From an uncultured Planctomycetia bacterium (lineage in GTDB: Bacteria; Omnitrophota; Gorgyraeia; Pluralincolimonadales; Pluralincolimonadaceae), in NCBI GenBank assembly GCA_964650515.1, contig CAZYUB010000011.1, positions 4,798-68,797 of the forward strand: a stretch of 64,000 bases of DNA. The letters run 5' to 3'. The position numbers and the translations under genes were made by a program. Positions 3,776-18,480 of the stretch are shown piece after piece; positions within the stretch are counted from its first letter, which is position 1; each line of letters opens with the position of its first letter. A model generated the notes under the pieces. It was not told the origin of the DNA. It saw only the letters and a list, made by a program, of their open reading frames with translations, and did no database searches.

Positions 3776-4187
3776 TATTTTTTATCCTCTCGAGGTATGA
3801 TTCAAGTATCAGCTGCGCGGCGATCTTATCTATCACGTCCTTCCTCTTCCTGCGCGATACGTCGGAAGAGATGAGGAACTTCTCACTTTCTTTCGTGGAC
3901 AGCCGCTCGTCGTATGTGGCAACCGGTATCCCTGCGGACGAGCTGAGCGCGCCGACGAATTCCGTTACCTTATCCGCGCTCTTTCCTCTCGTGCCGTCCA
4001 TGTTTATAGGCATGCCCACCACTACGGATTCGGCGCCGTATTGCGCGATAATATCCTTTATGGCCTTAAGGTCCTCTTCGAGGGTCTTCCTTTCGATAAC
4101 GGTGACCCCCTGCGCTATTATCCCGAGAGGGTCGCTGACCGCGACACCTATGCGCCTATCCCCGACATCAAGGCCAAGTACCCGCAT
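3762..4187 (-). CDS. ruvX: Holliday-junction resolvase-like RuvX/YqgF
   Basis: MRVLGLDVGDRRIGVAVSD... typical YqgF N-terminus. Start placed at internal ATG 4187 (TGATG overlap with upstream stop) rather than the longer track ORF. Confidence 0.85.
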   Translation of the reverse strand: MRVLGLDVGDRRIGVAVSDPLGIIAQGVTVIERKTLEEDLKAIKDIIAQYGAESVVVGMPINMDGTRGKSADKVTEFVGALSSSAGIPVATYDERLSTKESEKFLISSDVSRRKRKDVIDKIAAQLILESYLERIKNNVRA

Positions 4188-5269
4188 CAGAGGTATTTTT
4201 TCAGCTCCTTTTCGTTTTTCATGAGCGAGACAAGCTTCTTTACGTCCTGCGCCAGGTCCCTGCGGCATACGAGCACGCAGTCCCCGTCGCGGACGACTAT
4301 GACGTTGTCGAGCCCGACGGTACCTATCACGCCCTGAGACGATACAATGACCGAATCCCTCGTCTCGACCGACTTGTGCAGGCCGATCGAGAAATTACCG
4401 TTCGCGTCGGTAGACAGGTGCCTCGCGAGAGAATCCCACGAGCCGAGGTCGTCCCAGTAAAATTTCCCTTCCACGGCGAATATGCGTTTCTCTTTTTCGA
4501 GCACGCCGTAATCTATCGATATCTCCTCGAGGTTCGGGTAGACCTCGTTAAGCCTGCAGTTGAAATTGAGCCGGCCTATGCTCGGTTCCAGCAGCTGCAG
4601 GCCGAGATATAGCCTCGGCAGGTTCTCCCTGATGGCGTCGAGTATGCTCGTCGCCTTCCAGATGAACATTCCGCTGTTCCAGTAATACCTCTTCTCCTTG
4701 ACGAATCTGACAGCGTTCGGAAAACTTGGTTTCTCGACGAATGCCATTACCCTGTGGACCACGGCTTTTAGCCCCGGGCCCTTTATCCTGAACTGGCCGC
4801 TCGTGTCTATCCTGAGGTATCCGTACCCGGTCGCGGGGAATGTGGGCTTTACCCCTATCGTAACGAGGCCGTTCGAGGCCTCCGCGACCTGTACGCCCGT
4901 GAGTAGCGCGTCGATGAACTTATCCTTCTCCTTTATGAGGTGGTCGGACGGCAGCACTATCATAGCCCCGCGCGGGTCGCGTTTCTTGATGAGCATTGCC
5001 GCAAGGCCGCAAGCCGCCGCGGTATTCCTCGCGGCAGGTTCCGCGATTATATTCTTTATCGAGGGAAGGTCGGCCTTGATAGAGCCCAATTGCTCCTTGT
5101 TCGTGATGACGTATATCCGGTCGTTCGGGACTATCGCGTTGATCCGCGAGACCGTCTCCTGTATCAGCGAGCGCCTGCCCATAAGCTTAAGCGTTTGCTT
5201 CGGCGTCTTTATCCTGCTCTTGGGCCAGAACCTCTCGCCCCTGCCGCCGGCTATTATTACGGCATAGAT
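4187..5269 (-). CDS. Mannose-1-phosphate guanylyltransferase-like nucleotidyl transferase (ManC/GMPP family); start codon non-canonical or unresolved
   Basis: Track ORF (first ATG at 5182) begins MGRRSLIQ. The conserved NTP-transferase motif IYAVIIAGGRGERFWP is encoded in-frame upstream between that ATG and the stop at 5297-5299, with no ATG/GTG/TTG there. Provisional start placed at ATC 5269. Confidence 0.6.
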   Translation of the reverse strand: MYAVIIAGGRGERFWPKSRIKTPKQTLKLMGRRSLIQETVSRINAIVPNDRIYVITNKEQLGSIKADLPSIKNIIAEPAARNTAAACGLAAMLIKKRDPRGAMIVLPSDHLIKEKDKFIDALLTGVQVAEASNGLVTIGVKPTFPATGYGYLRIDTSGQFRIKGPGLKAVVHRVMAFVEKPSFPNAVRFVKEKRYYWNSGMFIWKATSILDAIRENLPRLYLGLQLLEPSIGRLNFNCRLNEVYPNLEEISIDYGVLEKEKRIFAVEGKFYWDDLGSWDSLARHLSTDANGNFSIGLHKSVETRDSVIVSSQGVIGTVGLDNVIVVRDGDCVLVCRRDLAQDVKKLVSLMKNEKELKKYL

Positions 5270-5276
5270 ATTCTTC

Positions 5277-6074
5277 TTATTGATGGGCCGCCTCCGTCAG
5301 TTTTTGAACGTATTCGCCTACATTGCGTATGAACCGCCTCTTCCCGGAATTCCTCTCGATCTCTTTGACTATTGCAGAGCCGACTATCACCCCGTCGGCC
5401 GCACCGCATACCTGCTTTACCTGCCCGGGGCTCGATACGCCGAATCCGACGCACACCGGGAGTTTCGAATGCCTCTTGATGAGCTTCACCCTTTGCGCAA
5501 GCTCCGCGGGCAATGATGACCTCGCGCCGGTTATCCCTGTAAGCGAGACATAATATATGAATCCCCTCGTCCTGCCCGAGACAAGCTTTATCCTCTTAGC
5601 GGTGCTCGTCGGGCTCAAAAGGAATACGGTCGCGAAACCCTTCTTCCTCGACGGGGCGATAAGCTCGGCCGACTCTTCCGGAGGCAAGTCGGGTATAATG
5701 ACGCCGTCGACGCCGCTCTTCGAACAATCCGATACGAACCTGTTTACGCCGTATTTCAGTATCGGGTTGTAATAGCCCATGAGGACTATCGGTACCTCGG
5801 TCTTCTTCCTGAGCTCTTTAACGGCGGCGATTATATCTTTGAGCTTAGTGCCCCTCTTAAGCGCCCTTTCGGACGATAACTGTATCGTGGGGCCGTCCGC
5901 CACGGGGTCGGAGAACGGGACGCCGAGCTCTATTATATCCGCGTCGCGCGACGCGAATTCGAGGACAAGCTTCTTCGTGTTCGCCAGGCCGTAATCGCCG
6001 GCTGTGAAGAAAGCTATCAGCGCTTTTCGTCCGTCTTTCTTAAGTTCCCTGAATTTTTTATCTATCCTGTTCAT
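5277..6074 (-). CDS. trpA: Tryptophan synthase alpha chain
   Basis: 265 aa; ...IELGVPFSDPVADGPTIQ... canonical TrpA motifs. Confidence 0.93.
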   Translation of the reverse strand: MNRIDKKFRELKKDGRKALIAFFTAGDYGLANTKKLVLEFASRDADIIELGVPFSDPVADGPTIQLSSERALKRGTKLKDIIAAVKELRKKTEVPIVLMGYYNPILKYGVNRFVSDCSKSGVDGVIIPDLPPEESAELIAPSRKKGFATVFLLSPTSTAKRIKLVSGRTRGFIYYVSLTGITGARSSLPAELAQRVKLIKRHSKLPVCVGFGVSSPGQVKQVCGAADGVIVGSAIVKEIERNSGKRRFIRNVGEYVQKLTEAAHQ

Positions 6075-6075
6075 A

Positions 6076-7260
6076 TTATTTTAGAAGCATCCGTGAGGCC
6101 ATGTCCACGTCCTTATCGCCCCTGCCGGAAAGGCAGACGACCACTAGGTCGCTCTTCCTGAGTTTCTTCGATATCTTCGCGAGGTACGCGATCGCGTGGG
6201 ACGATTCCAGGGCCGGTATTATGCCTTCGGTCTCTGACAACATTCGAAAGGCGTCCAATGCCTCGCTGTCCGTCACGGATACGTATCTTGCCCGTCCCGT
6301 TTCCTTGAAATATGCGTGCTCGGGCCCTACGCCCGGATAATCGAGCCCTGCGGAGACGGAGTGCGCTATCTTTACCTGGCCCGCATCATCCTGCAGCAGG
6401 TAGCTCTTGCTTCCGTGAAGGACGCCGACCTCGCCCCGTTCGAGAGTGGCCGCGTGCATTCCGGTCGAAAGCCCTTTTCCCGCCGCTTCGACGCCTATGA
6501 ACTTCACGTTCCTGTCGCCGATGAACCTGTAGAAGAGGCCCATGGAATTCGAACCGCCGCCTACGCACGCAATAAGGTAGCCCGGAAGCCTGCGCTCCGC
6601 CTTAAGTATCTGGTTCCTGGCCTCCGCGCCTATGACCGACTGGAAATCCCTTACCATCATAGGGAAAGGGTGCGGCCCTGCGACCGAGCCGATGCAATAA
6701 TGGGTGTCCCGGACGTTCGTGACCCAGTCCCTCATCGTCTCGTTCATAGCGTCTTTCAGTGTCCTGCTGCCGCTCGTGACGGTAGTTACCTTCGCCCCGA
6801 GCAATTTCATCCTGAAAACGTTCAATGACTGGCGGCGTACGTCCTCTTCGCCCATGAAGACCTCGCACTCAAGCCCGAAAAGCGCCGCGACAGTCGCGGT
6901 GGCGACGCCATGCTGCCCTGCCCCGGTCTCGGCAATGATCCTCTTCTTGCCCATTCTCACTGTAAGCAGGCCCTGGCCGAGCGTGTTATTTATCTTATGG
7001 GAGCCCGTATGGAGCAGGTCTTCCCTCTTCAGGTAGATCTTCGGGCCCTTCAGGAATTTACTAAGGCGTCGGGCGTTATAGAGCTTGCTCGGCCTTCCGG
7101 CGTATTCTTCGAGGTAATACCGTAACTGCTCGGAGAATCTCCTGTCCTTTTTTGCGGCCTTATAGGCGGCTTCAAGCTCTTCAAGCGCCGTCATCAGCGT
7201 TTCGGGGACGTATTTTCCTCCGAAGACGCCGAAATGGCCCTTTATGTCAGGCTGTTTCAC
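6076..7260 (-). CDS. trpB: Tryptophan synthase beta chain
   Basis: 394 aa; HTGSHKINN (PLP-Lys), GGGSNSMG motifs. Confidence 0.95.
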
Positions 7261-7360: not shown

Positions 7361-7648
7361 TTACTTGATTATTATCTCGGAGTTCTCGCGTGTTTTGCTT
7401 TGAAGCTTAAGGCGTTCGTCTATGACGGATCGGAGTATATCGCCCTTCGTTGATGGTTTTATTTGCATGGATGGGTCATCCTTCATCTTCAGGGCAAGCG
7501 CGAGTTTCAGGTCCTTGTCGAATATCGGCTCTCCGTTGACCGTGGCTATCACCTTACCCGCTGAAACTGCGGAAGCCGGCTTTTCAGCCGGCCTCCCGCA
7601 TCCTGCCACAATGAACGCAAGCAACAATATTGCCGCCGCGCGTATCAC
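7361..7648 (-). CDS. Small lipoprotein with SurA N-terminal-like chaperone domain
   Basis: 95 aa; signal peptide + lipobox (AGCG); VIATVNGEPIFDKDLKLAL...SVIDERLKLQ resembles SurA/PpiD N-domain; start abuts stop of giant gene (coupled). Confidence 0.55.
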   Translation of the reverse strand: MIRAAAILLLAFIVAGCGRPAEKPASAVSAGKVIATVNGEPIFDKDLKLALALKMKDDPSMQIKPSTKGDILRSVIDERLKLQSKTRENSEIIIK

Positions 7649-10600
7649 TTAATTTCCCTGGTTCCAGGTTCCTGCGCCCACACCTTCGAACGTGCCGGCT
7701 TCGGTTCCGGTGTAAGTACCGCCGGCCTGGCCGTTGAAACCCACGTCTCCGGGCGCGGTGCCCGTTACATTAGCGGTCCACTGACCCTCGTTCCATTGTG
7801 TACCGGTAAGGGTGGCGTTTATATTCCCGTCGTTAAAATTCAACGACCAGTTCTCTCCGCCGGTATAACCGGAATAGCTGCCTCCGAAGAGCGCGGCCCA
7901 TATGCCGTTCATGTCGAGCGCGCTCTGGGCATAGAAGCTTATGTCCATGCTGCCCGTTATTGTTCCCGCGGCGCCAAGCGGGCCGTTGCCTTTCAGAAGG
8001 GCCGTATAAGTCTCCGTAATAGGCATATTTACCATTTCGGCGATCGCGTAATTATCGAAACGAAGCACGCTTGTATCCAGCTCCGCGAGGTCTACCCATT
8101 CGCCTACGAACGCGGCCTGTATGGTGGTATCGACACCCGCTTCGTAGAAACCGGAGATGTCGCCATTTACGCGTCCGACTTTCATCGCCGTGTATTCCTC
8201 GGCCTCGGGATCCCAATTCTCGGGCGCAAGGTATATACCGCGGTAAGAGCCGGTAACATCGCCTTCTTTTACGCCGTCATTGTCATAGTCCCAGGCGCCG
8301 TTGGTTCCATAAGCGCTAAACAGGACATAGCTGTCCGTGGTGTCATCTTCAGAAACCACGCCGCCCAAAGCCGTCCGCCATACGCCATCGGTGACGACGG
8401 CATCCGACTGCGCGAGCATTACGCCGCTGACAATGCCCCAGGTGTCATACCCCTCTATATTTGCGATAGAGGCCTGGGCTATCTGCGCTTCGAGCGGATT
8501 GCCGTTGATGCTTCCTTCGCCGTACGCGTTGAAAGCGTCCTCGGCGACTGCCATATTATTCGTAAGTTCCGCCGGGTCCATGTCTATATACTGCATTACG
8601 ACGTGAGGCGTCCAGGTGCCGTCGGCCTCCCATATGCCTACCTGCATGTCTTCGCCGTAATCCAGGTATTCATTCGGCATAGCGCAATAAATGCCTTCCG
8701 CATCTCCGCGCAGTATGCCCGCCTGGTATCCGTCTTCTCCCGGAGAAATGAACAAAGCTGCGGTATACATATGGGACAGGACCGACATATTACCGGAACG
8801 GGAGGTGCCCACGGTCCATCCCCAGAACGCGCCTTCGCCGTCAGCCGTTGTGTCAGACCCGTCATAACCGTTGAAGCTGTTGATCTCGGATCCTACGAGA
8901 TATGAGCTGCGGTCCAGGTACCCCTCGTATTCTCCCATGGCGATCACATCAAAGGCCCCGTTAGCCCACCAATCCTGCGCGGTGCTTCCTATATTGCCGT
9001 AGGTGATGCCGTCCTGCATGAATCCTTCGCCGTAAACACCTATACCGCCGCTGGACGAACCGCTCAGGGTAAGGTCCTCGGACTGCGCTACGCCAAGCGA
9101 AAGGGCTTCCCATGCGTCTTCTTCCGTATCATATGCCCCGAGCATCTTGCCGTTAAATGAGATCAGGGTTGTGTTTGACAACACTCTTCCGGATACATCG
9201 GCGCTGAAACCGCCGTCTTCCCATGATGTGCCGTCGATGAAAGCGAGCGTATACGTCGAGTAGAAGCCGTCTCCCTCATCTTCCACATCGCCCATTACGG
9301 CGGTCCATGCGCTCTCGGGATCGCCGACAAATACGCCCGAACTGCCCGCTCTCCAGACGCTCCAATCCTGGTCTACCAGGCCCATCGTCTCTCCGTCGAG
9401 CGTGCCTCTTATATCACCGCCGATGACACCGTAAATATCATCCGAATCGATCACTTCGCTTGTGCCCGAGAGCAGCACCGTAGGGTCGTAATCCGTCGGC
9501 ATGTCGAGGAAATACGCGAGTTTTCCTTCCGCCCCGTACATCCCGATAGACGGGTAGAAATCGCCGTTAAAATAATCTGAGTTGCCGGCGCCGTCTACCG
9601 ACATGATATAACCGGCGCGGTTGCCTTCGTCCGTCTCCCTTATATAAATAGAGAGAAGCATGCCCTTAAGCCTGTTGTCGAGCGAGGTGCCTCCCATGGT
9701 CCCGTAAGCGACGGCGTTGTCATCCGTTATTACGTAGAAATCGGAAGCCCATAATTTGTATTCCGGAACGCCGTCCTCGTTATAATCGGGATTCCAGAAC
9801 CCTCCGATAAGGGTCATGTCCGCGGGCCCCTCCCAGATATTGCCGGACCCTCCGAAGACGCCGTCCATATATCCGTAATCGCAGTTGAATCCGCCGTAGT
9901 AATCCTCTACATAACCGAACGCGCCGTCCATCAGGATGCCTGAATAAGCGAGCGGCTCCGTCTTCCATTCTCCTATAGCGGCTCCGGCCCATGAAGTATA
10001 GTCATAGTATTCGCCGCCGTCATAATAGTAGTGGTCTGTCGCCGTTCCGCGGAGGTCGCCGTCTATCCTGCCTATCATGCCCTCTTCGAGGTCGATGAAC
10101 GCACCGGCAACGTCCGCCGAGATCGCGTTGTCGCCGTAGATAACGTTCTTGGCAGTGATAAGCAGGCGCTCGCCGTAACCTTCTTCAGAACTGCCTAACG
10201 CGAGGCCGTTCTCGGCAACGTCGCCGTCATCCTTCTCGAACCACCCGCCCATCTTCACGTTAAAGATGCCCCACGGCATGTCCGGCAATGAGTAGCTATA
10301 CGCTTCTTCAATACCGCCGTAGATCGTGCCGTTACCGGCGAACGAGCCGCCGACCTGTATATCTCCCAGGTATTCCTCATTGATGTTTTCGTATCTCAGG
10401 TCCGCGGGTGCGAAGGAATAGCCCTCTACAGTCTCCGTCGACAGGTCCATCGAGACCTGCCATAGGCCTATCCCGTCATAATACTCTCCTTCGGCGCCGC
10501 CCTTCATGATGCCGACCCTGCCGTCCGGGGCCGCGAATATCGCGATGACCCTGCCGTCCGACATGATCCCATCCTTCCAGATGCCGGTCGTGAAGCCGTA

Positions 10601-13600
10601 ATACGCTCCTCCGTCAAGGGTCGTATTATCGTCTTTTTCCACATTATTGCTTTCGATCTCGGTATTCCAGAACTTCGGCGCGCCGTCATCGTAATCGTAC
10701 CAGAAACCGCCTATAGCGCGGGCGATGAACGACTTATTATTCCACCAGTCCTCCACGGTCGAGCCCATAAGCCCGTGTTCTTCGCCGGCCCAGGATATAT
10801 AATCTTCCTCATTATCGGCATAAAGGCTGCTCTTGCCTTCGCCCCAATACCCGCTGAATGTCAGCCTCTTTCCGTTCCATGTTCCGGATCCCGAGCCCAT
10901 CCAGGTCCCGTCGTCGTAATATGCGCCGTCTATGTCGCCGGATATGGTTCCCATCCTCGTGCCGGTCAGGAATACGCCGTCGAGCGAGCCGCTGAACCAT
11001 TCCTCTCCCTGCCCGTTGACATCCGCTATCCAGTATCCGTAATCATTCTCAGCCGTACCGTATGAGTCCTCATACGACAGGTAGGAAGCGTCTTCCGGAG
11101 CGGACCCGATAAGTTCCGCCAGCGGAGTGGACGTATCCCATGTCCCGTATTCGGACGTGCCGCCGAGATAATTCCCGTTGCTGTCATACGAATAGGAGTA
11201 TGAGTATGTGGACCCGTCATCGTAGTAATTCGTGTAAGAATACTGTTGGGTATTATCTACATAGTGATATTCGGATGTATAGCCATAGGTGTTATTATCA
11301 TAGTATTGGTAATAGTAATTTCCGCCGTCATTGAGCTGGTACTGGCCGTTGACGTATAACCCGGGATTGTAGCAACCGAACGAGTCGTTGCCGCCCATCT
11401 TCGCGTAGAATATTCCGTCAGTTACTTCCGGCAGCTCATACTCTCCCGTAAGCCTCTGGCTGTATATGCCCCAGTCGTATGATGTATGGTTGGCGTAGTC
11501 CACTATGCCGGCCGTATAAAGCTCATCCTGACCGCCGAAGAACCCTTCACCGGAGTAATTGCCTTCAAGCCTCCCCTCGCCCTCTTCGGACCATATCGAA
11601 TCCGAAAGTTCCCCCGCGCTTATGCCGGCTATGACGGGTGTTATATTGGTGTCATCTCCAAAATCACCTTCGAACATATAGGCGCCGGCCAGGTTGGAAT
11701 ACGCGCCCTCGACCCTTCCGGATTTCACGCCAGCATAGCCGTCGGGATTTATGTATATGATGCGCGCGGACCCTTTTATAGCACTGTCCTTGCCTGTGAC
11801 CGAGGATAGCCCGTAATATGCGCCCTCCTGCCCCTCATCGCTGAACTCCCTTCTGTCTTCCGATCCGTTAACATCGCTTGAGAAGTCGGTCATCCAGACG
11901 AAATCTCCGAGAGAGCCGGATTCGTCCTCTTCCATCTCGCCTATCGAAACAAGATAGAATCCGTCCTCACCCCAGAGGTCTCCGACGGTCCCTGCGAGGC
12001 CGCCGATGTGGCCGGCATGCTCGAACCCGCCGTAATCATCGTAATCGTATTCGTCATACTCGTACTCATACTGGTACGGGGTATACGCGCAATTGTACAA
12101 ATAGGCGCTGGATGAAAGCTCCTGCTCTACGAACCCTCCCGCTCCCGTACCTTCTACGCCTTCTCCCGCATACGCGAGTATAGTGCCGTAATAGGCGCCG
12201 AGATGGGATGTGTCAAGATAGGAACCCGAGATATCCAACCTTAAGGCGCCGTTAAGGTCGTCAGCCCCTTCGATCAGTGAGAAGAAATACCCGTCATTAT
12301 AATCACCTCCGGCGACAGCGCTCCAGTTCGTAAGGCCGTTCTGGTTCATGTATCCGCCGTAATGTGCTTCGCGCCAGATACCCCAATCCTGGCCCTCGAT
12401 CTTGGCCATCTGCCTGTCGAATTCCGTTTCGAAATACCCGTTGCCGCCGTCAAAGGCGAAATTCAGGTTGCCATAACCCCATCCCTCGACCGTGTTATAT
12501 TCCGTTTCCGGGTCAAGTTGAGCCATCGGAATGACGTAAAGGTCGCCGCTTCCTGCCATGTCGCCCCAGTAGTATCCATCCATTTCGTTTGCTGTGCTGG
12601 AACCGGAGAGGACTCCGAACAGGTTGCCTGCCATGCCGGACGGGTCTATATATATAGAAGATACGACGGTGTCCCAGCTGTGCATGATACCGCCGCTCCA
12701 GCCGTAGAACACGCCTCCGTCCACGCCTTCGCCCTCGACGTTACCGATGAAGACCCTGTTATACGGGTTATCATATGTGCCGGCGGCATCCATTGAAATA
12801 GTGCCGGACCACTGTTCGCTCAAAGGCGTAGTGCTCGAAAGCGCCAAATTGAAAAAATTGTTCTCCGAGGGCCCTTCATAGCCGAATGCGCCTTCGATCA
12901 TGCCGTTCATCGTAACGGGAGCGACGATAACTTCTTCCCCGCCACCGCTGCCCGTATTGCCGCCCTCGCCGGGGCCTATTATGTCTGTAAAGGGTTTGTC
13001 GGAAAATACGTTATTGGGGTTGTTGTCCGGATTCTCGTTGCCGCCGGTCCCGCCGCCGGTGTAGCCCTCAGGCCCGCTGTACCCCTCGGCCTCTCCGCCG
13101 AATTCCCAGCCCTCATGCCAGTTCGACCTCTGGTCGTCTGAAGGCGCCAGGGGATTGCTGATATTCCCGTTCCCGTCGACCGTGGAGCCGGTCCCCATCG
13201 GTACGTTTTGGGTGGTCCCGGATATCAGGCTTCTGAGCACGCCGTTGCCTTCCTCGAAGTAAGCATTGGTAAGGTTCGGCAGTATATTCATGAAAAGCAC
13301 GGTGCCGCGGACACATGCTACCGCGTTGGGGGTCTTTACCTCGAACTTCGAATTACCCTTGAGCTTTTCCACCTGTGCCCTGAGCTTGCCGCCCGTAGAT
13401 TCAAAGAGGTTTTCGTATTCGCCATTGCTTCCGTTCGACAGTTTCGAGATCGTGACGTTGGAATTCTGCTGCAGCGTTATGATATTCCCGTTCTCGACCT
13501 TGAATTCCGCCTTGCCGTTCTGCCTCGTCTCGATAGAATCGCCGGTCTTCACCGTCTCGTTGAGTTTAGCGTCATGCCAGGCCTTTGAGCCCTTGTTCTT

Positions 13601-14344
13601 TATCCTGACATCTCCTGCCAATTTAACGATCACGGCCTTCATCTCTCCCGCCTGGCTGTATCCTTCGGCAACAGGACGCTTGCCTGATGCGATGTCGGAA
13701 GATGCGGCCTCGTTTTTCATGACCGATGTATCGGCCTCATGCGACCTCTTCTCTGAGGCGAGCATCATCCTCGGTGAGGAAGGCTCGTTATCCGCAGCGA
13801 CTACGGAGACCTCCCCGCCTTTTATTTCGACCTTCTTATCCGGAGAGGAAGGGTTCGACAGCGAGTACCTGCCGTTGAGCACGGCTACGGCGGTCGAGGA
13901 TTTCTGGAATATTACCACTACGTCCGTCCCTTTTACGGAACCGTTCGCGTTCGGCGTGTTTATGGTAAAGCTGTCCTTTGCAGAGGATTTTGATATAATT
14001 GCCCTGATCTTGCCGCGTTCGACGTTCAAAACGGCGCTTATCCTTTTGCCGTCGTCACCGGTCCTGTACTCCGCAACATCCAGTTTTGTCTTTTCCGCAA
14101 GCCTGACCACAGACCGGTCCGCGAAGGTTATTTCGGCCTTTGAGGCGCTCTTCGTGCGCACGGAGTCGCCTGCTTCGATCTCCGATCCGAGCACGGCCGC
14201 AGACGAAGACATGGATCCCGCCTTGAAAAGGTCTACACTGCCCTCAAGCGAGGTTATGCTGCCTATACCGGAGGCAAATGCCGTTGAGCTCCCGAGTATA
14301 AGAAGGGCTGCCAGTGCAATGGTCTTGATGCTGCGGTCTTTCAT
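7649..14344 (-). CDS. Giant secreted protein (2231 aa): signal peptide, two tandem FecR domains, then ~1800 aa highly acidic Gly/Tyr/Asp/Glu/Trp-rich region with divergent internal repeats
   Basis: SPase-I type signal (TAFA|SG). FecR-like segments (..FTINTPNANGSVKGTDVVV.. and ..FEVKTPNAVACVRGTVLF..). Remainder almost devoid of K/R. Recurring modules (EGAYYG..DGRVIAIFAAPDG.., GDIDGAYYDDGTW, IGRIDGDLRGT / IGGDIRGTLDG) and DxDxDG-like loops. SD AAGGAGA 8 nt upstream. Confidence 0.8.
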   Translation of the reverse strand: MKDRSIKTIALAALLILGSSTAFASGIGSITSLEGSVDLFKAGSMSSSAAVLGSEIEAGDSVRTKSASKAEITFADRSVVRLAEKTKLDVAEYRTGDDGKRISAVLNVERGKIRAIISKSSAKDSFTINTPNANGSVKGTDVVVIFQKSSTAVAVLNGRYSLSNPSSPDKKVEIKGGEVSVVAADNEPSSPRMMLASEKRSHEADTSVMKNEAASSDIASGKRPVAEGYSQAGEMKAVIVKLAGDVRIKNKGSKAWHDAKLNETVKTGDSIETRQNGKAEFKVENGNIITLQQNSNVTISKLSNGSNGEYENLFESTGGKLRAQVEKLKGNSKFEVKTPNAVACVRGTVLFMNILPNLTNAYFEEGNGVLRSLISGTTQNVPMGTGSTVDGNGNISNPLAPSDDQRSNWHEGWEFGGEAEGYSGPEGYTGGGTGGNENPDNNPNNVFSDKPFTDIIGPGEGGNTGSGGGEEVIVAPVTMNGMIEGAFGYEGPSENNFFNLALSSTTPLSEQWSGTISMDAAGTYDNPYNRVFIGNVEGEGVDGGVFYGWSGGIMHSWDTVVSSIYIDPSGMAGNLFGVLSGSSTANEMDGYYWGDMAGSGDLYVIPMAQLDPETEYNTVEGWGYGNLNFAFDGGNGYFETEFDRQMAKIEGQDWGIWREAHYGGYMNQNGLTNWSAVAGGDYNDGYFFSLIEGADDLNGALRLDISGSYLDTSHLGAYYGTILAYAGEGVEGTGAGGFVEQELSSSAYLYNCAYTPYQYEYEYDEYDYDDYGGFEHAGHIGGLAGTVGDLWGEDGFYLVSIGEMEEDESGSLGDFVWMTDFSSDVNGSEDRREFSDEGQEGAYYGLSSVTGKDSAIKGSARIIYINPDGYAGVKSGRVEGAYSNLAGAYMFEGDFGDDTNITPVIAGISAGELSDSIWSEEGEGRLEGNYSGEGFFGGQDELYTAGIVDYANHTSYDWGIYSQRLTGEYELPEVTDGIFYAKMGGNDSFGCYNPGLYVNGQYQLNDGGNYYYQYYDNNTYGYTSEYHYVDNTQQYSYTNYYDDGSTYSYSYSYDSNGNYLGGTSEYGTWDTSTPLAELIGSAPEDASYLSYEDSYGTAENDYGYWIADVNGQGEEWFSGSLDGVFLTGTRMGTISGDIDGAYYDDGTWMGSGSGTWNGKRLTFSGYWGEGKSSLYADNEEDYISWAGEEHGLMGSTVEDWWNNKSFIARAIGGFWYDYDDGAPKFWNTEIESNNVEKDDNTTLDGGAYYGFTTGIWKDGIMSDGRVIAIFAAPDGRVGIMKGGAEGEYYDGIGLWQVSMDLSTETVEGYSFAPADLRYENINEEYLGDIQVGGSFAGNGTIYGGIEEAYSYSLPDMPWGIFNVKMGGWFEKDDGDVAENGLALGSSEEGYGERLLITAKNVIYGDNAISADVAGAFIDLEEGMIGRIDGDLRGTATDHYYYDGGEYYDYTSWAGAAIGEWKTEPLAYSGILMDGAFGYVEDYYGGFNCDYGYMDGVFGGSGNIWEGPADMTLIGGFWNPDYNEDGVPEYKLWASDFYVITDDNAVAYGTMGGTSLDNRLKGMLLSIYIRETDEGNRAGYIMSVDGAGNSDYFNGDFYPSIGMYGAEGKLAYFLDMPTDYDPTVLLSGTSEVIDSDDIYGVIGGDIRGTLDGETMGLVDQDWSVWRAGSSGVFVGDPESAWTAVMGDVEDEGDGFYSTYTLAFIDGTSWEDGGFSADVSGRVLSNTTLISFNGKMLGAYDTEEDAWEALSLGVAQSEDLTLSGSSSGGIGVYGEGFMQDGITYGNIGSTAQDWWANGAFDVIAMGEYEGYLDRSSYLVGSEINSFNGYDGSDTTADGEGAFWGWTVGTSRSGNMSVLSHMYTAALFISPGEDGYQAGILRGDAEGIYCAMPNEYLDYGEDMQVGIWEADGTWTPHVVMQYIDMDPAELTNNMAVAEDAFNAYGEGSINGNPLEAQIAQASIANIEGYDTWGIVSGVMLAQSDAVVTDGVWRTALGGVVSEDDTTDSYVLFSAYGTNGAWDYDNDGVKEGDVTGSYRGIYLAPENWDPEAEEYTAMKVGRVNGDISGFYEAGVDTTIQAAFVGEWVDLAELDTSVLRFDNYAIAEMVNMPITETYTALLKGNGPLGAAGTITGSMDISFYAQSALDMNGIWAALFGGSYSGYTGGENWSLNFNDGNINATLTGTQWNEGQWTANVTGTAPGDVGFNGQAGGTYTGTEAGTFEGVGAGTWNQGN

Positions 14345-14362
14345 TTCAGGTATCTCCTTTTG

Positions 14363-15871
14363 TTAAAATTTGTACTCGATGCCGAGGCTGTAAATGCTCC
14401 TGTCGTAATCGTATACCGCTATATTTGAATGGTCCTTTACGTATGTATACCTGAATTGGAGCTCGGCTTCCTTCCAGAAGTTATACCCGAGCATGGATGA
14501 TAGCGTATATGTCTGGTCATCCCTCCTGACACCGAAGATCGAGTTCGTGTTCGAGAAATCCTGCAGGTAGACGTCGCCGGCAAGGCTCGCCTTGAATCTC
14601 TTCAGGAAAGGATACAGGACCGTTGCGGTGATCCTGTTGCCGAGGTACTCCCAGTTCTTTCCCTTCGTGTCTTCCTTGTTGACACCGTAGCGCAGTCCGA
14701 GGAAACCCTTGTTCTCTGCGAAGAAGAAGTAGTATCCGAGCCCGCCGCCGTAGTCGTTGGAATTGCGGTCCTCATCAGGTATGAACGGGTCCCTCGCGAA
14801 ATCTTTCTTCTTGTAATCGAAATTTGTCTGCAGCATATGGTTCCGGGCGAATATATAATTGACTACAGGGCTTGCGCTCAGCGTTGTCATGTATTTGGAT
14901 TCGCCGACATCGGTATAGTTGTATCCGACAACGACCCCCGCGGTCCCTTTGTCGAGGTAATAGTTAGGCGTCACCGTTACCGTATGGCTCATCACGTCAT
15001 AGAGCCCCAATTTGTTCTGGTGCGCGAAATACATCGAATATTGGCCGTCCACCCCGAACCTTTCGGCGAATTTCTTCCGGTACTGCCCCATGAACGTCAC
15101 GACCTCCCTCCAGTCGCTCTCGTCGCTTATGCCCGACGCGACAGTATCGTCCCCGGGTTTAAGCAGCACGTTCGTATCATACTGGCCTGAAACGTTCAGC
15201 GTGGCCCTGAAAGGCCTTTCTGCCGTCTCTTTCCTTTTCAAGGCATCAATGTATTCGTTCGAAAGCCCGGCTATGTCCGAGTTCGGGTCGAGGATTATGA
15301 TATCCCTAAAGACCTTCTTTGCCTCATCGAATCTCTTCTGTTTTATGTTGGCAAGCCCGATTTGGTAATCCGCCGATTGAGACAAGGAAGTATCGAGCGC
15401 CTTAGCGTTCTCGAAGGAAGTGATCGCCGCTTCATTATCGTTATCCTTGAGCAATACCAGCCCTTTAAGGAATGCCGTCTGTGCCGGCTTAACGTTCTCG
15501 CGTTCCGCCACTTCGATATAGTTTCTCGCTTCCTTAAGGTCTCCGAGCTGGTAGAGGACTTCCACTAATTCGAGCAGGGCCTCCTTTATCCTCGGCGTAA
15601 GGGTAACCGCGTCGACCAGCTGTTTTTTAGCTTCCTTGTAATCCTGCAGCTGCTTATATGTTATACCGAGGTAATATGCCGCAAGCGATGATTTCGGATC
15701 TGTTTCCCTGACTTTCCTGAGGGCTGATGCCGCTTCATCAAAATTCTCTTGTTTGTATAACTTGATGGCCTGTTCCAGTTGAGGATCCGTTTCAGCGATA
15801 AGTAAACCGGGGAGAGTTAGCAATATTGAGACGAAAATTACCGTAAAGGCAGGAAATACTTTTTGCGGCAT
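14363..15871 (-). CDS. Outer-membrane protein: N-terminal TPR repeats + C-terminal beta-barrel (Slam/DUF560-like architecture, inferred)
   Basis: 502 aa; signal peptide; four or more TPR-like helical repeats (AAYYLGITYKQLQDYKEAKKQL...); C-terminal half has alternating aromatic/Gly-rich strands and ends ...SLGIEYKF (terminal Phe, OMP signature). Confidence 0.55.
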   Translation of the reverse strand: MPQKVFPAFTVIFVSILLTLPGLLIAETDPQLEQAIKLYKQENFDEAASALRKVRETDPKSSLAAYYLGITYKQLQDYKEAKKQLVDAVTLTPRIKEALLELVEVLYQLGDLKEARNYIEVAERENVKPAQTAFLKGLVLLKDNDNEAAITSFENAKALDTSLSQSADYQIGLANIKQKRFDEAKKVFRDIIILDPNSDIAGLSNEYIDALKRKETAERPFRATLNVSGQYDTNVLLKPGDDTVASGISDESDWREVVTFMGQYRKKFAERFGVDGQYSMYFAHQNKLGLYDVMSHTVTVTPNYYLDKGTAGVVVGYNYTDVGESKYMTTLSASPVVNYIFARNHMLQTNFDYKKKDFARDPFIPDEDRNSNDYGGGLGYYFFFAENKGFLGLRYGVNKEDTKGKNWEYLGNRITATVLYPFLKRFKASLAGDVYLQDFSNTNSIFGVRRDDQTYTLSSMLGYNFWKEAELQFRYTYVKDHSNIAVYDYDRSIYSLGIEYKF

Positions 15872-15936
15872 CTGCTGAGCCCCTTTGGTTATATTAGGTT
15901 AGTTTTTAAAGATTATGAATGAAGTAGATTTGAATA

Positions 15937-15965
15937 AATATACCATTTGTAGAGGGTTATGTCAA
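15937..15965 (-). promoter_or_regulatory. Near-consensus sigma70 promoter for the OMP / giant-protein / lipoprotein operon
   Basis: Minus strand: TTGACA (15965-15960), 17-nt spacer, TATATT (15942-15937); ~60 nt leader with AAAGGGG SD before ATG 15871. Confidence 0.6.
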
Positions 15966-15976
15966 GTAAATATTTG

Positions 15977-16004
15977 TTGACAAGAGTCGTAAAATTGGTA
16001 TAAT
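15977..16004 (+). promoter_or_regulatory. Near-consensus sigma70 promoter (extended -10) for the PEP-CTERM gene
   Basis: TTGACA (15977-15982), 16-nt spacer, TGgTATAAT (TG 15996-15997, TATAAT 15999-16004); GAGGTAAG SD before ATG 16051. Confidence 0.6.
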
Positions 16005-16050
16005 AATAACAAATTCAGGCCAACCAGCCAACCAAGCGAGGTAAGTTTCT

Positions 16051-16572
16051 ATGAAAAAAATATCATTAATATTTGCGGTATTTACGTGCCTTTTTGTCTC
16101 CTTATCGCCCGCTTACGCCGAATATGACCCGAATTACCAGGGTTTCCAGATGTACACCGTTGCAAGCAATACTTCCTCTTTTGCCGTTTCGGATTTCGAG
16201 CTGGGTTCAACGCCTTATCTGTATATTCAGCTTCCGAACCCTCCCGGGGGGCTTTGGTACTCTGAGGTCGAGAGTGACTGGTGGAACGGTAGCTTGTTCG
16301 AGGGTGATGCCGACAGGACAGGTTTTCAATCGGTATACCATATAGAGCTGACAGGACATGACTGGTCGGATGTTTCCAACGCCGGGACATGGACGATAAA
16401 CGCCGATTATTGGTATAAAATGCTCGGGAGCGGATATGTCATATCCTCCGACTCGGGATATGCTACGTTCACGATGAAGAATACGACTACGGTCCCTGAG
16501 CCTGTTTCGACCATGCTGTTCCTCGCCGGAGGATCGGTGCTTTTCGGAAGGCGTTTGCTGAGACGCAAATAG
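16051..16572 (+). CDS. PEP-CTERM sorting-domain secreted protein (exosortase substrate)
   Basis: 173 aa; N-terminal signal peptide (..SPAYA|EY); C-terminus VPEP-VSTMLFLAGGSVLFG-RRLLRRK = PEP motif + TM helix + basic tail. Confidence 0.8.
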   Translation: MKKISLIFAVFTCLFVSLSPAYAEYDPNYQGFQMYTVASNTSSFAVSDFELGSTPYLYIQLPNPPGGLWYSEVESDWWNGSLFEGDADRTGFQSVYHIELTGHDWSDVSNAGTWTINADYWYKMLGSGYVISSDSGYATFTMKNTTTVPEPVSTMLFLAGGSVLFGRRLLRRK

Positions 16573-16584
16573 ACAATCTCCCCT

Positions 16585-18480
16585 TCAGGCTATCTTCAGT
16601 ACAATAACCGTCATATCGTCGTGCTGCGGCATTCCTCTGCTGAATCTCTGGACCTCATCCACAAGCTTATCCGATAACTCCTGGGCGGAGAGGCGCCTGT
16701 TGATAAGAGCGGTATCCAATATCCTCTTCTCCCCGAATTCCTTAAGGTTCCTGTCCCGCGCCTCAGATATGCCGTCCGTATACATGACGAATACGTCGCC
16801 TGCCGACACCTTAAACTCGTCAGCGGTAAACTCAGAACCCGGTATTATGCCTATCGGGCTGCCGACCGACTGGGTAAGCGAGAGCACTTCGCCGTTCTCC
16901 TTTACCCATACAAGAGGGTTATGCCCGCCGTTCGAATATTTTACGGTCCTCTCTTTAGGTTTATATATCAGGTATTGAAGCGTCACGAACATCCCGGAGA
17001 CGCCTTCCTCGACTAGCCTGTCGTTTATCGCGGTCATCGCTTCGTCCGGTTCCGTAAAGTCATGCGTTAATCCCCTGAAATCAGCCATTGCCTTCGCCAT
17101 ATACAGCGCTGCGGGCACTCCCTTGCCTGAAACGTCCCCGATGACTACACCGAGCCTGTCTTCCTTTAATTTTATGAAATCATAGATGAGTTTTATGAAG
17201 TCGTAGAAATCGCCGCCTACATGTTTCGCGGGGACGCACTTGACGCCTATCTCGATCCCTATAGAGTGCGGAAGGCTTTGCGGCAATATCGACTGCTGTA
17301 TCCGGCTGGCTATCTGCAGCTCCTTCTCGATCAGGCCTTTCTCGAATTTCGTTATTATGAGCTGGTTAAGCGTGATAGCCGGATAGCAGACACATAGCAG
17401 CAGGAGGATAGTGACATAATCTATCCATATATTGAAGAAAGCGAAAGAGATGTAGGAGATGAGCAGGATCCCCGACAGCATGGCCGCGAAGAGTGCAAGA
17501 CCTTCGACCGGGGTCCTCTTCGGCAGGACGGTCCCGAGCGCGATGCCTATCGCGAACAGTATGAGGAGGATCTCAGGCCTGAAAACCCTGTGTATGAAGT
17601 CCTTCCTTAATATCGTATTGACCGCGCTTGCCCTTATGCCTACGCCGGGATACAGGGTCGACATCGGCGTTGCCCAGAAATCCTCCGATCCCGTGGCCGT
17701 CATTCCTATGATCACGATCTTGTCCTTCAGTATCCCGAGGTCGGTAGACGGCTTCTCCCCGTCCTGCGCCTGTATGCCTGAAAGTGCCACTTCGGCGAAC
17801 GAGAGCCGCTTGAACCGCGCGAACTCTCCCGGATAGTTGATCCACATCATGCTGTTCGCGTCAGTTTGTATCTTCAGCTTTTCGCGCTCGACGCCCGTGA
17901 AATGCGCTGCGGCGAGCATGTCTATCGAGACGTAATCGCTGCCGTCATGCCCTATCGTCAGCGGGACCTTGCGAACCTTTCCATCGGGTTCAACGAGTAT
18001 ATTCACGAAACCGACGCCTTTCGCGCTCTCGCGAAGCGCGGGAAGCGGCATGGTAATATCGCGGGGCTTGATTATATTCTTGCGTATATTATCCTGTGAA
18101 AGGTCAAAGAATGCGGAATAGAACACATTGCCCGTCTTCCTGGTCTGCGCGGCAAGCCTGCTGTCCTCGCCGGGCTTATCTTCCTGCGGTTCGCTGAACA
18201 GGATATCGAATACGATGGTCTTCGGCCCGTAATCCTCTATTATGTCGAGCAGTTCGGCATGGTATCCCCTGTCCCACGGCCACCTGCCGAATGCCTTAAG
18301 GGATGCATCGTCTATCTCGATGATCACTATATCGGGGCTTACGGGACGCGGGCCTCTCAGTTTGAACAATATATCCATGCCCTGGTATTCGGCAAGCTCA
18401 AAAAACCCGAGAAGATAAGCCAAACCGATGACAGTGCAGCATATCAACCCGATATAGAGTCCGCTTTTCTTTTTCATCAT
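16585..18480 (-). CDS. CHASE2 extracytoplasmic sensor fused to PP2C/SpoIIE-type serine phosphatase
   Basis: 631 aa; N-terminal TM then CHASE2-like region (..IVIIEIDDASLKAFGRWPWDR..); central TM segments; C-terminal PP2C motifs (GGDFYDF, VIGDVSGKG, YTDGISEA, DDMTVIVL). Confidence 0.75.
   Translation of the reverse strand: MMKKKSGLYIGLICCTVIGLAYLLGFFELAEYQGMDILFKLRGPRPVSPDIVIIEIDDASLKAFGRWPWDRGYHAELLDIIEDYGPKTIVFDILFSEPQEDKPGEDSRLAAQTRKTGNVFYSAFFDLSQDNIRKNIIKPRDITMPLPALRESAKGVGFVNILVEPDGKVRKVPLTIGHDGSDYVSIDMLAAAHFTGVEREKLKIQTDANSMMWINYPGEFARFKRLSFAEVALSGIQAQDGEKPSTDLGILKDKIVIIGMTATGSEDFWATPMSTLYPGVGIRASAVNTILRKDFIHRVFRPEILLILFAIGIALGTVLPKRTPVEGLALFAAMLSGILLISYISFAFFNIWIDYVTILLLLCVCYPAITLNQLIITKFEKGLIEKELQIASRIQQSILPQSLPHSIGIEIGVKCVPAKHVGGDFYDFIKLIYDFIKLKEDRLGVVIGDVSGKGVPAALYMAKAMADFRGLTHDFTEPDEAMTAINDRLVEEGVSGMFVTLQYLIYKPKERTVKYSNGGHNPLVWVKENGEVLSLTQSVGSPIGIIPGSEFTADEFKVSAGDVFVMYTDGISEARDRNLKEFGEKRILDTALINRRLSAQELSDKLVDEVQRFSRGMPQHDDMTVIVLKIA

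Follow-up and report, generated by a model that had tools for sequence, protein, structure and literature searches.

Organization of the Locus

A gene for an outer-membrane protein (OMP), a gene for a 2231-aa FecR-family protein and a gene for a small lipoprotein follow each other in the DNA of an uncultured Omnitrophota bacterium, and this raises the question of whether their products export a surface protein or perceive a signal. The window, which is the whole stretch of DNA analyzed, is 64,000 nt long, and a preliminary description of it had proposed an undescribed secretion or cell-surface module of these three genes. In this study, we speculated that the trio and a CHASE2-PP2C gene upstream of it form an envelope-spanning signal-perception module, whose outer-membrane part may display the giant protein at the surface, and we give this reading a probability of about one half.

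Table 1. Positions of the features of the locus in the window
Feature	Position	Strand	Remarks
CHASE2-PP2C (SpoIIE-type) membrane sensor phosphatase, 631 aa	16585..18480	-	Pfam CHASE2 + SpoIIE
Sigma-70-like promoter, upstream region of the OMP gene	15937..15965	-	TTGACA-17-TATATT, TG extension; consensus match only
OMP, 502 aa	14363..15871	-	signal peptide 15794..15871; TPR arm 15221..15784; barrel 14366..15211
FecR-family giant, 2231 aa	7649..14344	-	SPI signal peptide 14273..14344; FecR 1 13868..14167; FecR 2 13292..13636
Giant, remaining body: Gly/Asn-rich linker, then acidic all-beta repeat region	repeat region about 8147..12907	-	
Giant, C-terminal domain, residues 2067-2231	7652..8146	-	strand core residues 2109-2228 = 7661..8020
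Lipoprotein, 95 aa, GTG start	7361..7648	-	lipobox IVAGC, SurA-N-like domain only

The three ORFs were confirmed at these coordinates, all on the minus strand, and the spacers of 18 nt and 0 nt given earlier were verified. They are genuine genes rather than chance ORFs. The same gene order was found again in related genomes. The trio is part of a larger conserved module, and the CHASE2-PP2C sensor gene just upstream had been overlooked. The near-consensus sigma-70 promoter proposed for the OMP gene was recovered in the promoter scan, where it matched 11 of the 12 consensus positions; the scan gave 17 promoter-like sites against 10.8 expected, and only the match quality at the OMP gene is notable. 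A perfect promoter (15977..16004, plus strand) stands back to back with it, and a divergently transcribed PEP-CTERM gene lies between the CHASE2 gene and the OMP gene. The CHASE2-PP2C gene shares the strand of the OMP gene and stops 713 nt short of its start, and the divergent ORF lies in this gap. Because of this intervening gene and the separate promoter, co-transcription of the CHASE2 and OMP genes is not implied in the window.

Outer-Membrane TPR-Barrel Protein

The 502-aa protein had been described as having a signal peptide, TPR repeats and a C-terminal Phe, and all of these were borne out: the signal peptide would be cleaved at LIA|E by inspection, the Pfam TPR matches had E values down to 4e-19, and the C-terminus ...EYKF ends in a Phe that is near-invariant across the family. 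More than 250 full-length homologues, with identities of up to 97%, were found in Omnitrophota, Nitrospirota, Nitrospinota and Thermodesulfobacteriota. A structure prediction had been suggested to see whether the barrel has 14 strands, and the AF2 model, confident for both parts, gave a TPR arm of 12 helices (residues 30-217) and a barrel of 14 strands (residues 221-502).

This architecture had been likened to that of Slam/DUF560 translocators. The TPR repeats and the 14-strand barrel agree with it, but the window barrel gave no match to Pfam SlipAM/DUF560 (PF04575) even at E<=10, and the TPR_Slam model scored 20.2 bits on the OMP, below its gathering score of 35.2. The best Pfam scores of the window barrel were 24.8 bits for DUF2860 and 17.4 bits for BBP2_2. 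Among 72 barrels of the family, BBP2_2 matched 63, DUF2860 matched 39 and SlipAM matched 22 (best E=5.7e-10). This indicates that the OMP is a remote relative of Slam/DUF560 by family-level similarity only and not a member, in a family that sits between BBP2_2, DUF2860 and SlipAM.

Giant FecR-Domain Protein

Among deposited Omnitrophota proteins, one matches the giant at 100% identity and a second, named 'FecR family protein', at 84%. The earlier description of the giant as an acidic, non-lipidated FecR protein was correct: the SPI-type signal peptide would be cleaved at AFA|S without a lipobox (by inspection), the two FecR domains matched Pfam at E=5.5e-25, and residues 420-2231 contain 290 acidic against 56 basic residues. 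An internal duplication relates residues 30-143 to residues 239-351. The best NCBIfam matches of the N-terminal region, among them LipL45 (E=4e-30) and Lsa33 (E=1e-25), had scores far under the curated cut-offs (105 bits vs 350), and FecR domain 2 matched the NCBIfam LapA retention module at a sub-threshold 29.8 bits (cut-off 50). The likeness to the Leptospira proteins LipL45, Lsa33 and Lsa19 lies in these matches; by their NCBIfam names, Lsa33 is a surface adhesin and Lsa19 an adhesin. The three are short lipoproteins, whereas the giant is not. A FecR protein of the FecI-FecR-FecA anti-sigma type, with a cytoplasmic anti-sigma domain and one transmembrane helix ahead of FecR, was rejected, since the signal peptide is cleavable and the FecR domain follows directly after it. 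Among the neighbours, both those in the window and the conserved ones, no ECF sigma factor and no TonB-dependent receptor were found.

The body of the giant is acidic, Cys-poor and size-variable, and its all-beta model had a pTM of 0.80 over 832 residues. It is the fastest-evolving part of the region, with 83% identity in L001 against 92-98% in the flanks and 45% in L006 against 81-85%. The FecR partners were 256 to 2348 aa long across loci, and up to 3756 aa long when proteins from the profile search were included, so the range is then 256 to 3756 aa; Ig-like and beta-propeller inserts are present in some homologues. The giant is the long extreme of this size-variable family. Its fast divergence, together with the length range and the inserts of its relatives, hints that the body is exposed at the surface.

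A C-terminal domain of about 150 aa is common to 43 of 56 complete FecR partners regardless of their length, and 13 partners are without it. In the giant, its core has eight predicted beta-strands, preceded by a short helical segment with a PITETY motif. The domain had no sequence match in Pfam (TbpBBD included) or PDB, and we believe that it is previously undescribed. A profile search of 1.84 billion proteins returned 282 clusters; the domain was at the extreme C-terminus in the full-length proteins listed from this search, and five of seven sampled proteins had an N-terminal FecR domain. Studies have shown that type XI cargo is targeted by a C-terminal eight-stranded barrel (PMC12282271), and the eight predicted strands at the partner C-terminus would parallel it by analogy.

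Small SurA-N-like Lipoprotein

The 95-aa protein had been read as a lipoprotein consisting only of a SurA-N-like domain. Its lipobox and a match at 1.7e-23 to an HMM built from positional homologues of about 265 aa agree with this, but Pfam SurA_N_3 itself scored 17.8 bits on it, short of the gathering score of 27.2, which two of five scanned homologues (L039 and L040) passed at 27.8 and 31.6 bits. Across loci, a SurA-N-like lipoprotein gene usually follows the FecR gene, with a typical product of about 265 aa; the closest relatives (L001, L005, L006, L071 and L081) have equally short ones of 93-103 aa. The 95-aa lipoprotein represents a truncated version of the longer partner seen in other lineages. 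A parvulin-type PPIase domain is absent from it, the chain ending after 95 residues, and in the homologues of about 265 aa Rotamase_2 was at best sub-threshold (23 bits).

CHASE2 Sensor and Gene Neighbourhood

The product of the upstream gene matched Pfam CHASE2 at E=4.5e-59 (residues 16-312) and SpoIIE at E=6.8e-50 (residues 440-630), and within the module this phosphatase probably serves as the receiver at the inner membrane. A neighbourhood check had been suggested, and it gave an almost absolute linkage of the first two genes of the trio: the OMP gene is followed directly by a FecR gene on the same strand in 70 of 71 related loci, with a gap of <=250 nt in 63 of the 70. The partner is Sec-exported and non-lipidated, with one or two FecR domains and a variable middle, and the cluster is often completed by the SurA-N-like lipoprotein gene and a membrane sensor (CHASE2-PP2C/cyclase, or a small HAMP protein).

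Of 80 loci, 24 (about 30%) have a CHASE2 gene next to the OMP and FecR genes, in many of them directly adjacent; among the loci with wide flanks, the figure is 11 of 24. Counting CHASE2 and/or HAMP, a sensor gene was found in 17 of these 24 wide loci, and no sensor gene within 10 kb in 7 (about 30%). L081 is syntenic with the window for the CHASE2 arrangement. The outputs of the CHASE2 neighbours differ between loci, being PP2C or a cyclase (Guanylate_cyc), and the constant element is therefore the periplasmic CHASE2 domain. In L006, L071 and L005, the periplasmic CHASE2 domain has 57-58% identity, the FecR region 53-56% and the PP2C domain 74-79%; thus, the periplasmic domain and the FecR region diverge in step, and PP2C stays more conserved. 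In fuller loci, two further genes follow, one for a small membrane protein with HAMP and one for a secreted protein with HExxH; both genes are absent from the window itself. No glycosyltransferase or synthase genes were found among the conserved neighbours.

Comparison with Known Systems

The preliminary description had not recognized the combination as a described system. However, the component set of FecR, TPR, barrel and CHASE2 is already known from NsrA/CyaK, and a similar cluster has been reported in Campylobacterota; the combination has been seen before and never dissected. NsrA of Sinorhizobium meliloti, the only relative studied by experiment, is predicted to be an outer-membrane barrel protein; signalling to the CHASE2 cyclases CyaK/CyaD depends on it, and experiments showed that these cyclases (CyaK/CyaD1/CyaD2) need it to perceive an extracellular protein signal (PMC7529298; PMC13001267). 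It comprises FecR (66-160), TPR (378-587) and a barrel; there is a 1-nt overlap between its gene and cyaK, and the FecR domains of NsrA and the giant are homologous (E=3e-10). The window shares the FecR, TPR and outer-membrane barrel parts and the adjacent CHASE2 sensor. In contrast, NsrA is a single 1190-aa chain in the order FecR-TPR-barrel, whereas the window has two genes in the opposite order; the barrel region of NsrA has about twice the length of the window barrel, with no detectable homology between the two (hhalign probability 0.2%); NsrA has neither the beta-repeat body nor the conserved domain at the C-terminus; and the output is a cyclase in one system and a PP2C phosphatase in the other.

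In Campylobacterota, a CHASE2-cyclase/phosphodiesterase/FecR-OMP/TPR-protein cluster was noted (PMC9239204), and in Burkholderia, an RR/LysM-FecR/CHASE2-kinase 'BiofilmReg' operon. Both couple an envelope FecR protein genomically to a CHASE2 sensor, the TPR protein being found in Campylobacterota only, and the authors likewise infer a single signalling pathway. These reports are gene-neighbourhood notes only, with other outputs and accessory genes and, by their descriptions, no 14-strand barrel, C-terminal domain or giant forms.

The likeness to Slam and type XI secretion comprises an N-terminal periplasmic TPR with a 14-strand barrel, a directly adjacent partner gene, and a Sec-exported partner that varies in its N-terminal or middle part and has a conserved domain of eight predicted strands at its extreme C-terminus. 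An unlipidated type XI cargo, hemophilin, is known, as the giant is unlipidated. In contrast, the window barrel is without a PF04575 match, the C-terminal domain is by sequence neither TbpBBD nor lipoprotein C, and the FecR partners are up to about 10 times larger than known cargo, with FecR domains at the start. T11SS has been described in Proteobacteria, whereas the module is hosted by the four phyla of the OMP homologues, and Slam is linked to TonB receptors, whereas the module is linked to CHASE2/HAMP sensors.

As an analogy only, the giant repeat protein with an N-terminal module possibly retained in the periplasm resembles the LapA/LapE/LapG/LapD system, and the small HAMP protein and the secreted HExxH protein of fuller loci are reminiscent of LapD and LapG. 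The Lap system, however, uses type I secretion, a TolC-like pore, a cysteine protease and c-di-GMP, and none of these components is in the window module.

Alternative Explanations

It could be assumed that the locus serves secretion alone. The OMP would then be a type-XI-like translocator, the FecR protein that it exports would be an adhesin or a protein of the matrix, the SurA-N lipoprotein would be the chaperone, and CHASE2 would be a mere neighbour or an expression regulator. The Slam-like architecture with weak SlipAM similarity in the family, the strict adjacency of the OMP and FecR genes, the agreement of the terminal domain with the T11SS cargo rule, the chaperone-like partner, the fast-evolving, acidic, Cys-poor and size-variable body and the OMP gene's own promoter are all in keeping with this. 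We consider it unlikely, however, for it leaves unexplained FecR as an invariant N-terminal module, the recurring CHASE2/HAMP sensors with different outputs beside the pair, and the fusion of the same parts in the signalling protein NsrA, and DUF560 membership fails.

The sensor adjacency data speak equally for a wholly periplasmic relay, in which the barrel serves as receptor or anchor, the role assumed for NsrA, and the FecR protein, its C-terminal domain bound to the TPR arm, stays in the periplasm and reports the envelope state or an imported ligand to CHASE2 without translocation. NsrA is a precedent, for which surface exposure is assumed of the barrel loops alone (PMC7529298). In all characterized systems, FecR domains lie in the periplasm, and TPR arms serve for protein docking. 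We hold this to be improbable: partners of such varied length with a rigid all-beta body are hard to fit into a periplasm whose width is fixed, the body's rapid divergence and the Ig-like and propeller inserts are more in keeping with exposed proteins, and a 14-strand barrel with Slam-like relatives would have no obvious role.

A polymer export porin of the PgaA/BcsC/PelB type, possibly tied to the PEP-CTERM gene beside the OMP gene and with the FecR protein as an accessory, shares the TPR-plus-barrel architecture and very weak NCBIfam TPR matches (PgaA, BcsC, PrsT), but it is largely refuted by 14 strands instead of 16-18, by the lack of glycosyltransferase/synthase genes among the conserved neighbours, by negligible PgaA and BcsC scores and by the confinement of the PEP-CTERM gene to the closest relatives.

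Proposed Module

Signal perception by the trio and the CHASE2-PP2C protein is supported by the OMP-FecR linkage, the CHASE2/HAMP adjacency, the NsrA precedent, the clusters noted in Campylobacterota and Burkholderia and the parallel divergence of the CHASE2 domain and the FecR region. Its Slam-like part is supported by the TPR and 14 strands, the SlipAM matches in 22 of 72 barrels and the always-terminal domain of eight predicted strands. Counting against it are the window barrel that fails DUF560, the NsrA barrel that is not detectably homologous, the divergent PEP-CTERM gene and separate promoter that part the CHASE2 gene from the OMP gene in the window, the 7 of 24 wide loci without a sensor gene and the 13 of 56 partners without the C-terminal domain.

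In this module, the OMP and the FecR protein would form one outer-membrane-associated receptor, and the small lipoprotein may act as a periplasmic holdase for the long unfolded chain. By analogy with type XI cargo barrels and Slam, the TPR-barrel protein would either bind the conserved C-terminal domain or let it pass through, and the acidic beta-repeat body would thereby be displayed at or beyond the outer membrane as a sensing or adhesive element. The N-terminal FecR domains would remain in the periplasm, touching the CHASE2 domain, and this contact would switch the PP2C phosphatase in the cytoplasm, which would probably act on a partner-switching target of the STAS type.

Gene organization and surroundings

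The outer-membrane protein (OMP), the FecR-family giant and the small lipoprotein are encoded by three co-directional genes with spacers of 18 and 0 nt. The preliminary description had given these genes and spacings, a promoter before them, an OMP with a signal peptide, TPR repeats and a C-terminal Phe, a giant of the secreted non-lipoprotein type, and a 95-aa lipoprotein with a SurA-N-like domain. All of this was recovered, the open reading frames exactly as described and the SurA_N_3 match of the lipoprotein below the Pfam threshold. The trio genes are real, because the OMP has hundreds of full-length homologues in a homologue search and the giant is identical to one deposited protein, whose orthologues are named 'FecR family protein'. 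An exact-sequence look-up of the OMP found no record. The source organism belongs to Candidatus Omnitrophota.

Positions of the module genes and neighbouring features in the window
Feature	Position	Strand	Basis
OMP gene, 502 aa	15871..14363	minus	ORF call; signal peptide and terminal Phe in translation
Giant gene, 2231 aa	14344..7649	minus	ORF call; SPI-type signal peptide in translation
Small lipoprotein gene, 95 aa	7648..7361	minus	ORF call; lipobox IVAGC in translation
Promoter-like site before OMP gene, TTGACA-17-TATATT with TG extension	15965..15937	minus	consensus match
CHASE2-SpoIIE/PP2C membrane sensor phosphatase gene, 631 aa	16585..18480	minus	Pfam
PEP-CTERM protein gene, 173 aa; signal peptide and textbook sorting signal (VPEP, hydrophobic stretch, RRLLRRK)	16051..16572	plus	
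PEP-CTERM gene promoter, perfect sigma-70 consensus TTGACA-16-TATAAT	15977..16004	plus	
Housekeeping genes downstream (trpB, trpA, manC)	4187..7260		
Housekeeping gene upstream (dinG/yoaA-like helicase)	18477..20408		
Long antisense ORFs within giant gene	7796..8905; 13266..14366	plus	

The CHASE2 gene, which the preliminary description did not mention, lies just upstream of the OMP gene on the same strand, and the small, divergently transcribed PEP-CTERM gene alone intervenes. It is confined to the closest relatives (loci L001-L004, L006, L008 and L081); L005 and L071 are without it, and there CHASE2 directly precedes the OMP gene. Downstream, trpB and trpA follow the trio, so the module ends at 7361, and housekeeping genes enclose it on both sides. 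L081, from a second Omnitrophota genome, has the same synteny though its giant is only ~44% identical, which makes the module an ancestral feature of this position and not a recent insertion. The GC content drops to 0.495 over 14001-16000. Besides the antisense ORFs within the giant gene, a ~138-aa antisense ORF spans the OMP/FecR gene junction and is conserved in 50 loci (for example, L001:11418-11756, minus strand); these are most likely shadow ORFs from sense-strand conservation.

Conservation of the OMP/FecR pair

Eighty genomic loci, each encoding a relative of the OMP, were fetched from Omnitrophota, Deltaproteobacteria/Thermodesulfobacteriota, Nitrospirota, Nitrospinota and some Planctomycetes-labelled MAGs. 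A same-strand FecR-domain gene lies within 2 kb in 70 of the 71 loci having at least 400 bp of downstream DNA, and in 63 of those 70 the gap between the two genes is 250 nt or less. The complete FecR partners are 256 to 2348 aa long, the giant of the window being at the long end of this size continuum, and nearly all of them have an SPI-type signal peptide followed at once by a conserved FecR-domain start (VGKITYVEGRVD). The trio had been described as one unit; among the relatives, the pair held almost throughout, and 25 loci continue with a gene homologous to that of the 95-aa protein. In four Nitrospinota loci (L054, L063, L064 and L066), partners of 438-466 aa are without the conserved C-terminal domain and have a common alternative ending (...LLPVTETQPQTLKNTDVTVNVVFQ); the complete OMPs there (L054 and L066) are longer, at 553-556 aa. 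These loci may be a distinct subtype of the pair.

In most of the 25 loci this homologue is a lipoprotein of ~265 aa, with SurA_N_3 at or just under the gathering score and a rotamase match that is at best degenerate. The 93-103-aa form is limited to the closest relatives of the window and reflects a truncation that has been conserved rather than an annotation error. When all ORFs neighbouring the pair were clustered, two more recurrent genes were found after the lipoprotein gene, one for a small HAMP-domain membrane protein (21 loci) and one for a secreted ~166-aa protein (19 loci), which has a conserved HExxH motif and matches no Pfam family. The motif of the latter, DGVxAHExAHAvin, is zincin-like. 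In locus L007, for example, a 189-aa HAMP protein gene (15412-15981, plus strand) is followed by the HExxH gene (15985-16479, plus strand), and the same order is seen in ~20 other loci. Both genes are absent from the 64 kb of the window, which therefore carries a reduced module.

A CHASE2 sensor adjoins the pair in 24 of the 80 loci. For the 24 loci with wide flanks the number is 11, and 17 of these wide loci have CHASE2 and/or HAMP genes. The CHASE2 output is PP2C in Omnitrophota and adenylate/guanylate cyclase in the deltaproteobacterial loci. An NtrC-type response regulator is near the pair in 9 loci.

The outer-membrane protein

Pfam and NCBIfam gave strong TPR matches for the OMP and weak barrel matches. 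Against Pfam, the barrel of the window protein matched DUF2860 (24.8 bits) and BBP2_2 only, and it had no match to SlipAM/DUF560, the profile of the Slam proteins of type XI secretion, even at E<=10. Among 72 barrels of the family, 63 matched BBP2_2 (best E 2.9e-9), 39 matched DUF2860 (best E 2.7e-11) and 22 matched SlipAM (best E 5.7e-10). The OMP family is thus remotely related to Slam barrels, and the Slam family's own profile does not place it among the members. The Slam-type assignment in the preliminary description thus stands for the architecture (TPR plus a 14-strand barrel) and fails for the profile. A PDB sequence search with the barrel profile gave no meaningful match.

The giant protein and its C-terminal domain

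The giant begins with two FecR domains and LipL45/Lsa33-like similarity (Pfam, NCBIfam), followed by a Gly/Asn-rich linker and an acidic region of ~1750 aa (Gly 16.5%, Asp 8.7%, Tyr 8%, Trp 2.9%; 290 acidic vs 56 basic residues). Fragment-wise phmmer showed that the FecR part is internally duplicated (30-143 resembles 239-351) and that the acidic region contains divergent repeats, which self-BLAST of the giant did not show. Some homologues have Ig-like (Big_13, HYR) or beta-propeller inserts in the middle region. The AlphaFold2 model of residues 1400-2231 is confident although its input alignment had 17 rows (pLDDT 86, pTM 0.80), and it is all beta, with 48 long antiparallel strands. It best matches small eight-stranded barrels (PagL 7.7, NspA 7.6, VtrC 6.9), and hemophilin scored 5.7 and 5.4. 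The Foldseek matches of the model in the PDB (LptD, ushers and porins, TM 0.07-0.12) are not meaningful, and a PDB sequence search with the giant gave no meaningful match.

A C-terminal domain of ~150 aa is common to 43 of 57 proteins (56 complete partners and the giant) of any length, including the giant and partners as short as 413-443 aa, with the consensus ...PITEvY..L.G.G.f....MD..fYA....GIWaa..G.Ysg...W......atL.G..W..g.W.A.V.G.....f.G.AaGTY....GtF.G.GaGtW. In the model it forms a short helical segment and then eight strands (giant residues 2109-2228). A homologue search with the last 260 aa of the giant found only 7 fragments. The domain profile, searched against 1.84 billion representative proteins, matched 282 clusters at E<=1e-3, of which 173 reached E<=1e-10, in proteins of up to 3756 aa; all full-length proteins listed carry the domain at their very C-terminal end, and N-terminal FecR domains were present in 5 of 7 sampled. 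Each protein has 2-6 weaker internal matches to the profile, and the body repeats are therefore related to the terminal unit. The domain matches no Pfam family, and a PDB profile search with it returned nanobody noise only. The giant family is thus marked by two conserved ends and a middle that can expand, as are proteins that use their ends for anchoring and targeting. It also parallels type XI cargo, in which a variable N-terminal part precedes a C-terminal eight-stranded barrel directing secretion (PMC12282271; PMC8406197). In some fairly close relatives of the giant (L071:11536-16920; P0124, at L081:8001-13802; P0125), the last ~100 residues diverge strongly from the consensus and end ...GQINNM..GGG..IT...VVAGVLTP, with the PITETY segment kept; the adjacent OMPs are still 69-82% identical.

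Evolutionary rates

Identity to the proteins of the window in the closest genome (L001) and a second comparison (L006)
Part	L001	L006
Flanking genes	92-98%	85% (TrpB)
OMP	96-98%	81% (barrel)
PP2C domain	98%	75%
Periplasmic CHASE2 domain	94%	58%
FecR region of giant	87%	56%
Body of giant	83%	45%
C-terminal domain	80%	66%
Small lipoprotein	75%	54%

The body of the giant is the fastest-evolving part of the region, and its rapid divergence and unconstrained length are suggestive of an exposed protein. In L006, divergence of the periplasmic CHASE2 domain is about equal to that of the FecR region and exceeds that of the PP2C domain in the same protein; this parallel divergence is suggestive of interacting partners.

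Relation to known systems

CHASE2 domains head many cyclases, kinases and phosphatases; to our knowledge, NsrA is the sole functional clue to what they sense. In Sinorhizobium meliloti, the outer-membrane protein NsrA, described as a predicted outer-membrane beta-barrel receptor protein, is needed for the CHASE2 cyclases CyaK and CyaD1/D2 to perceive a protein signal (PMC7529298; PMC13001267). In Burkholderia, a LysM-FecR protein gene lies beside a CHASE2 kinase gene (PMC5192318). In the nsrA-cyaK locus taken from S. meliloti pSymB (CP140883.1), NsrA (L082:4411-7983, plus strand) has FecR (66-160), TPR (378-587) and a C-terminal barrel region by Pfam, and nsrA overlaps cyaK by 1 nt. The NsrA FecR domain aligned with the two FecR domains of the giant at E=3e-10 and 2e-4. 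Thus, the same four blocks are present in both systems: in NsrA, whose signalling role is demonstrated, FecR, TPR and barrel are fused, with CHASE2 in the adjacent gene, and in the window they are split. The NsrA barrel had no detectable homology to the OMP family barrel (hhalign probability 0.2%), and this, together with the opposite gene order, rules out that the pair is simply NsrA split into two genes. The giant has no anti-sigma domain, and neither an ECF sigma factor nor a TonB receptor is among the neighbours in the window or the conserved neighbours, so a FecIRA anti-sigma system of the classical type was also ruled out.

Proposed function

The best-supported explanation, to which we give a probability of about one half, is that the window encodes a module for signal perception at the envelope, similar in kind to NsrA/CHASE2. 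A receptor associated with the outer membrane would be made up of the TPR-barrel protein and the FecR protein, the FecR domains would signal to the CHASE2 domain of the PP2C phosphatase, and the small lipoprotein would serve as a chaperone for the long chain. The body of the giant may plausibly be passed to, or through, the outer membrane, because several features are Slam-like: the 14-strand barrel, the arm of TPR repeats, the strictly adjacent genes and the eight predicted strands of the terminal domain.

A pure type-XI-like secretion module seems rather unlikely; the window barrel lies outside the Slam profile, and a sensor gene recurs beside the pair. A purely periplasmic relay seems unlikely to the same degree. 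A polysaccharide porin of the PgaA/BcsC type (16-18 strands) is essentially refuted, being ruled out by the 14 strands and the absence of synthase genes among the conserved neighbours.

We speculated that the HAMP and HExxH genes could be a control pair like LapD/LapG of the Lap adhesin retention-release system; no report joining 'retention module' with FecR was found in the literature. In a joint reading, which we offer more tentatively still, a type-XI-like translocon outside Proteobacteria would thread a size-variable beta-barrel-repeat filament to the surface, and the N-terminal FecR domains, kept in the periplasm, would be retention plug and signalling head in one and gate CHASE2. The periplasmic HExxH and membrane HAMP proteins of the fuller loci would reset or release it as LapG/LapD analogues. 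If so, a surface-tethered 'antenna' would respond to contact, a pulling force or a bound ligand outside the cell and relay this inward as a phosphatase or cyclase signal.

Significance

The module is not categorically new, because lists of gene neighbourhoods already contain the combination and there is genetic work on one fused relative. Several features appear to be undescribed: the near-obligate pairing of split OMP and FecR genes in a number of poorly studied phyla, an OMP with 14 strands and Slam-like architecture, the family of C-terminal domains, a beta-repeat body that can expand (2231 aa here, 3756 aa elsewhere) and the accessory SurA-N, HAMP and HExxH genes. The parts list of NsrA (FecR, TPR and outer-membrane barrel) recurs, split into a tight OMP/FecR pair, in at least four little-studied phyla, and the short partners of ~410-445 aa in Deltaproteobacteria MAGs are tractable for tests of FecR-CHASE2 communication. 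The OMP/FecR family is also a candidate for type XI-like secretion outside the Proteobacteria, and its new, sharply delimited C-terminal domain could be a targeting signal. Omnitrophota are thought to be largely host-dependent nanobacteria, and their large, fast-evolving, possibly surface-displayed and sensor-wired giant is plausible as a contact-sensing device.
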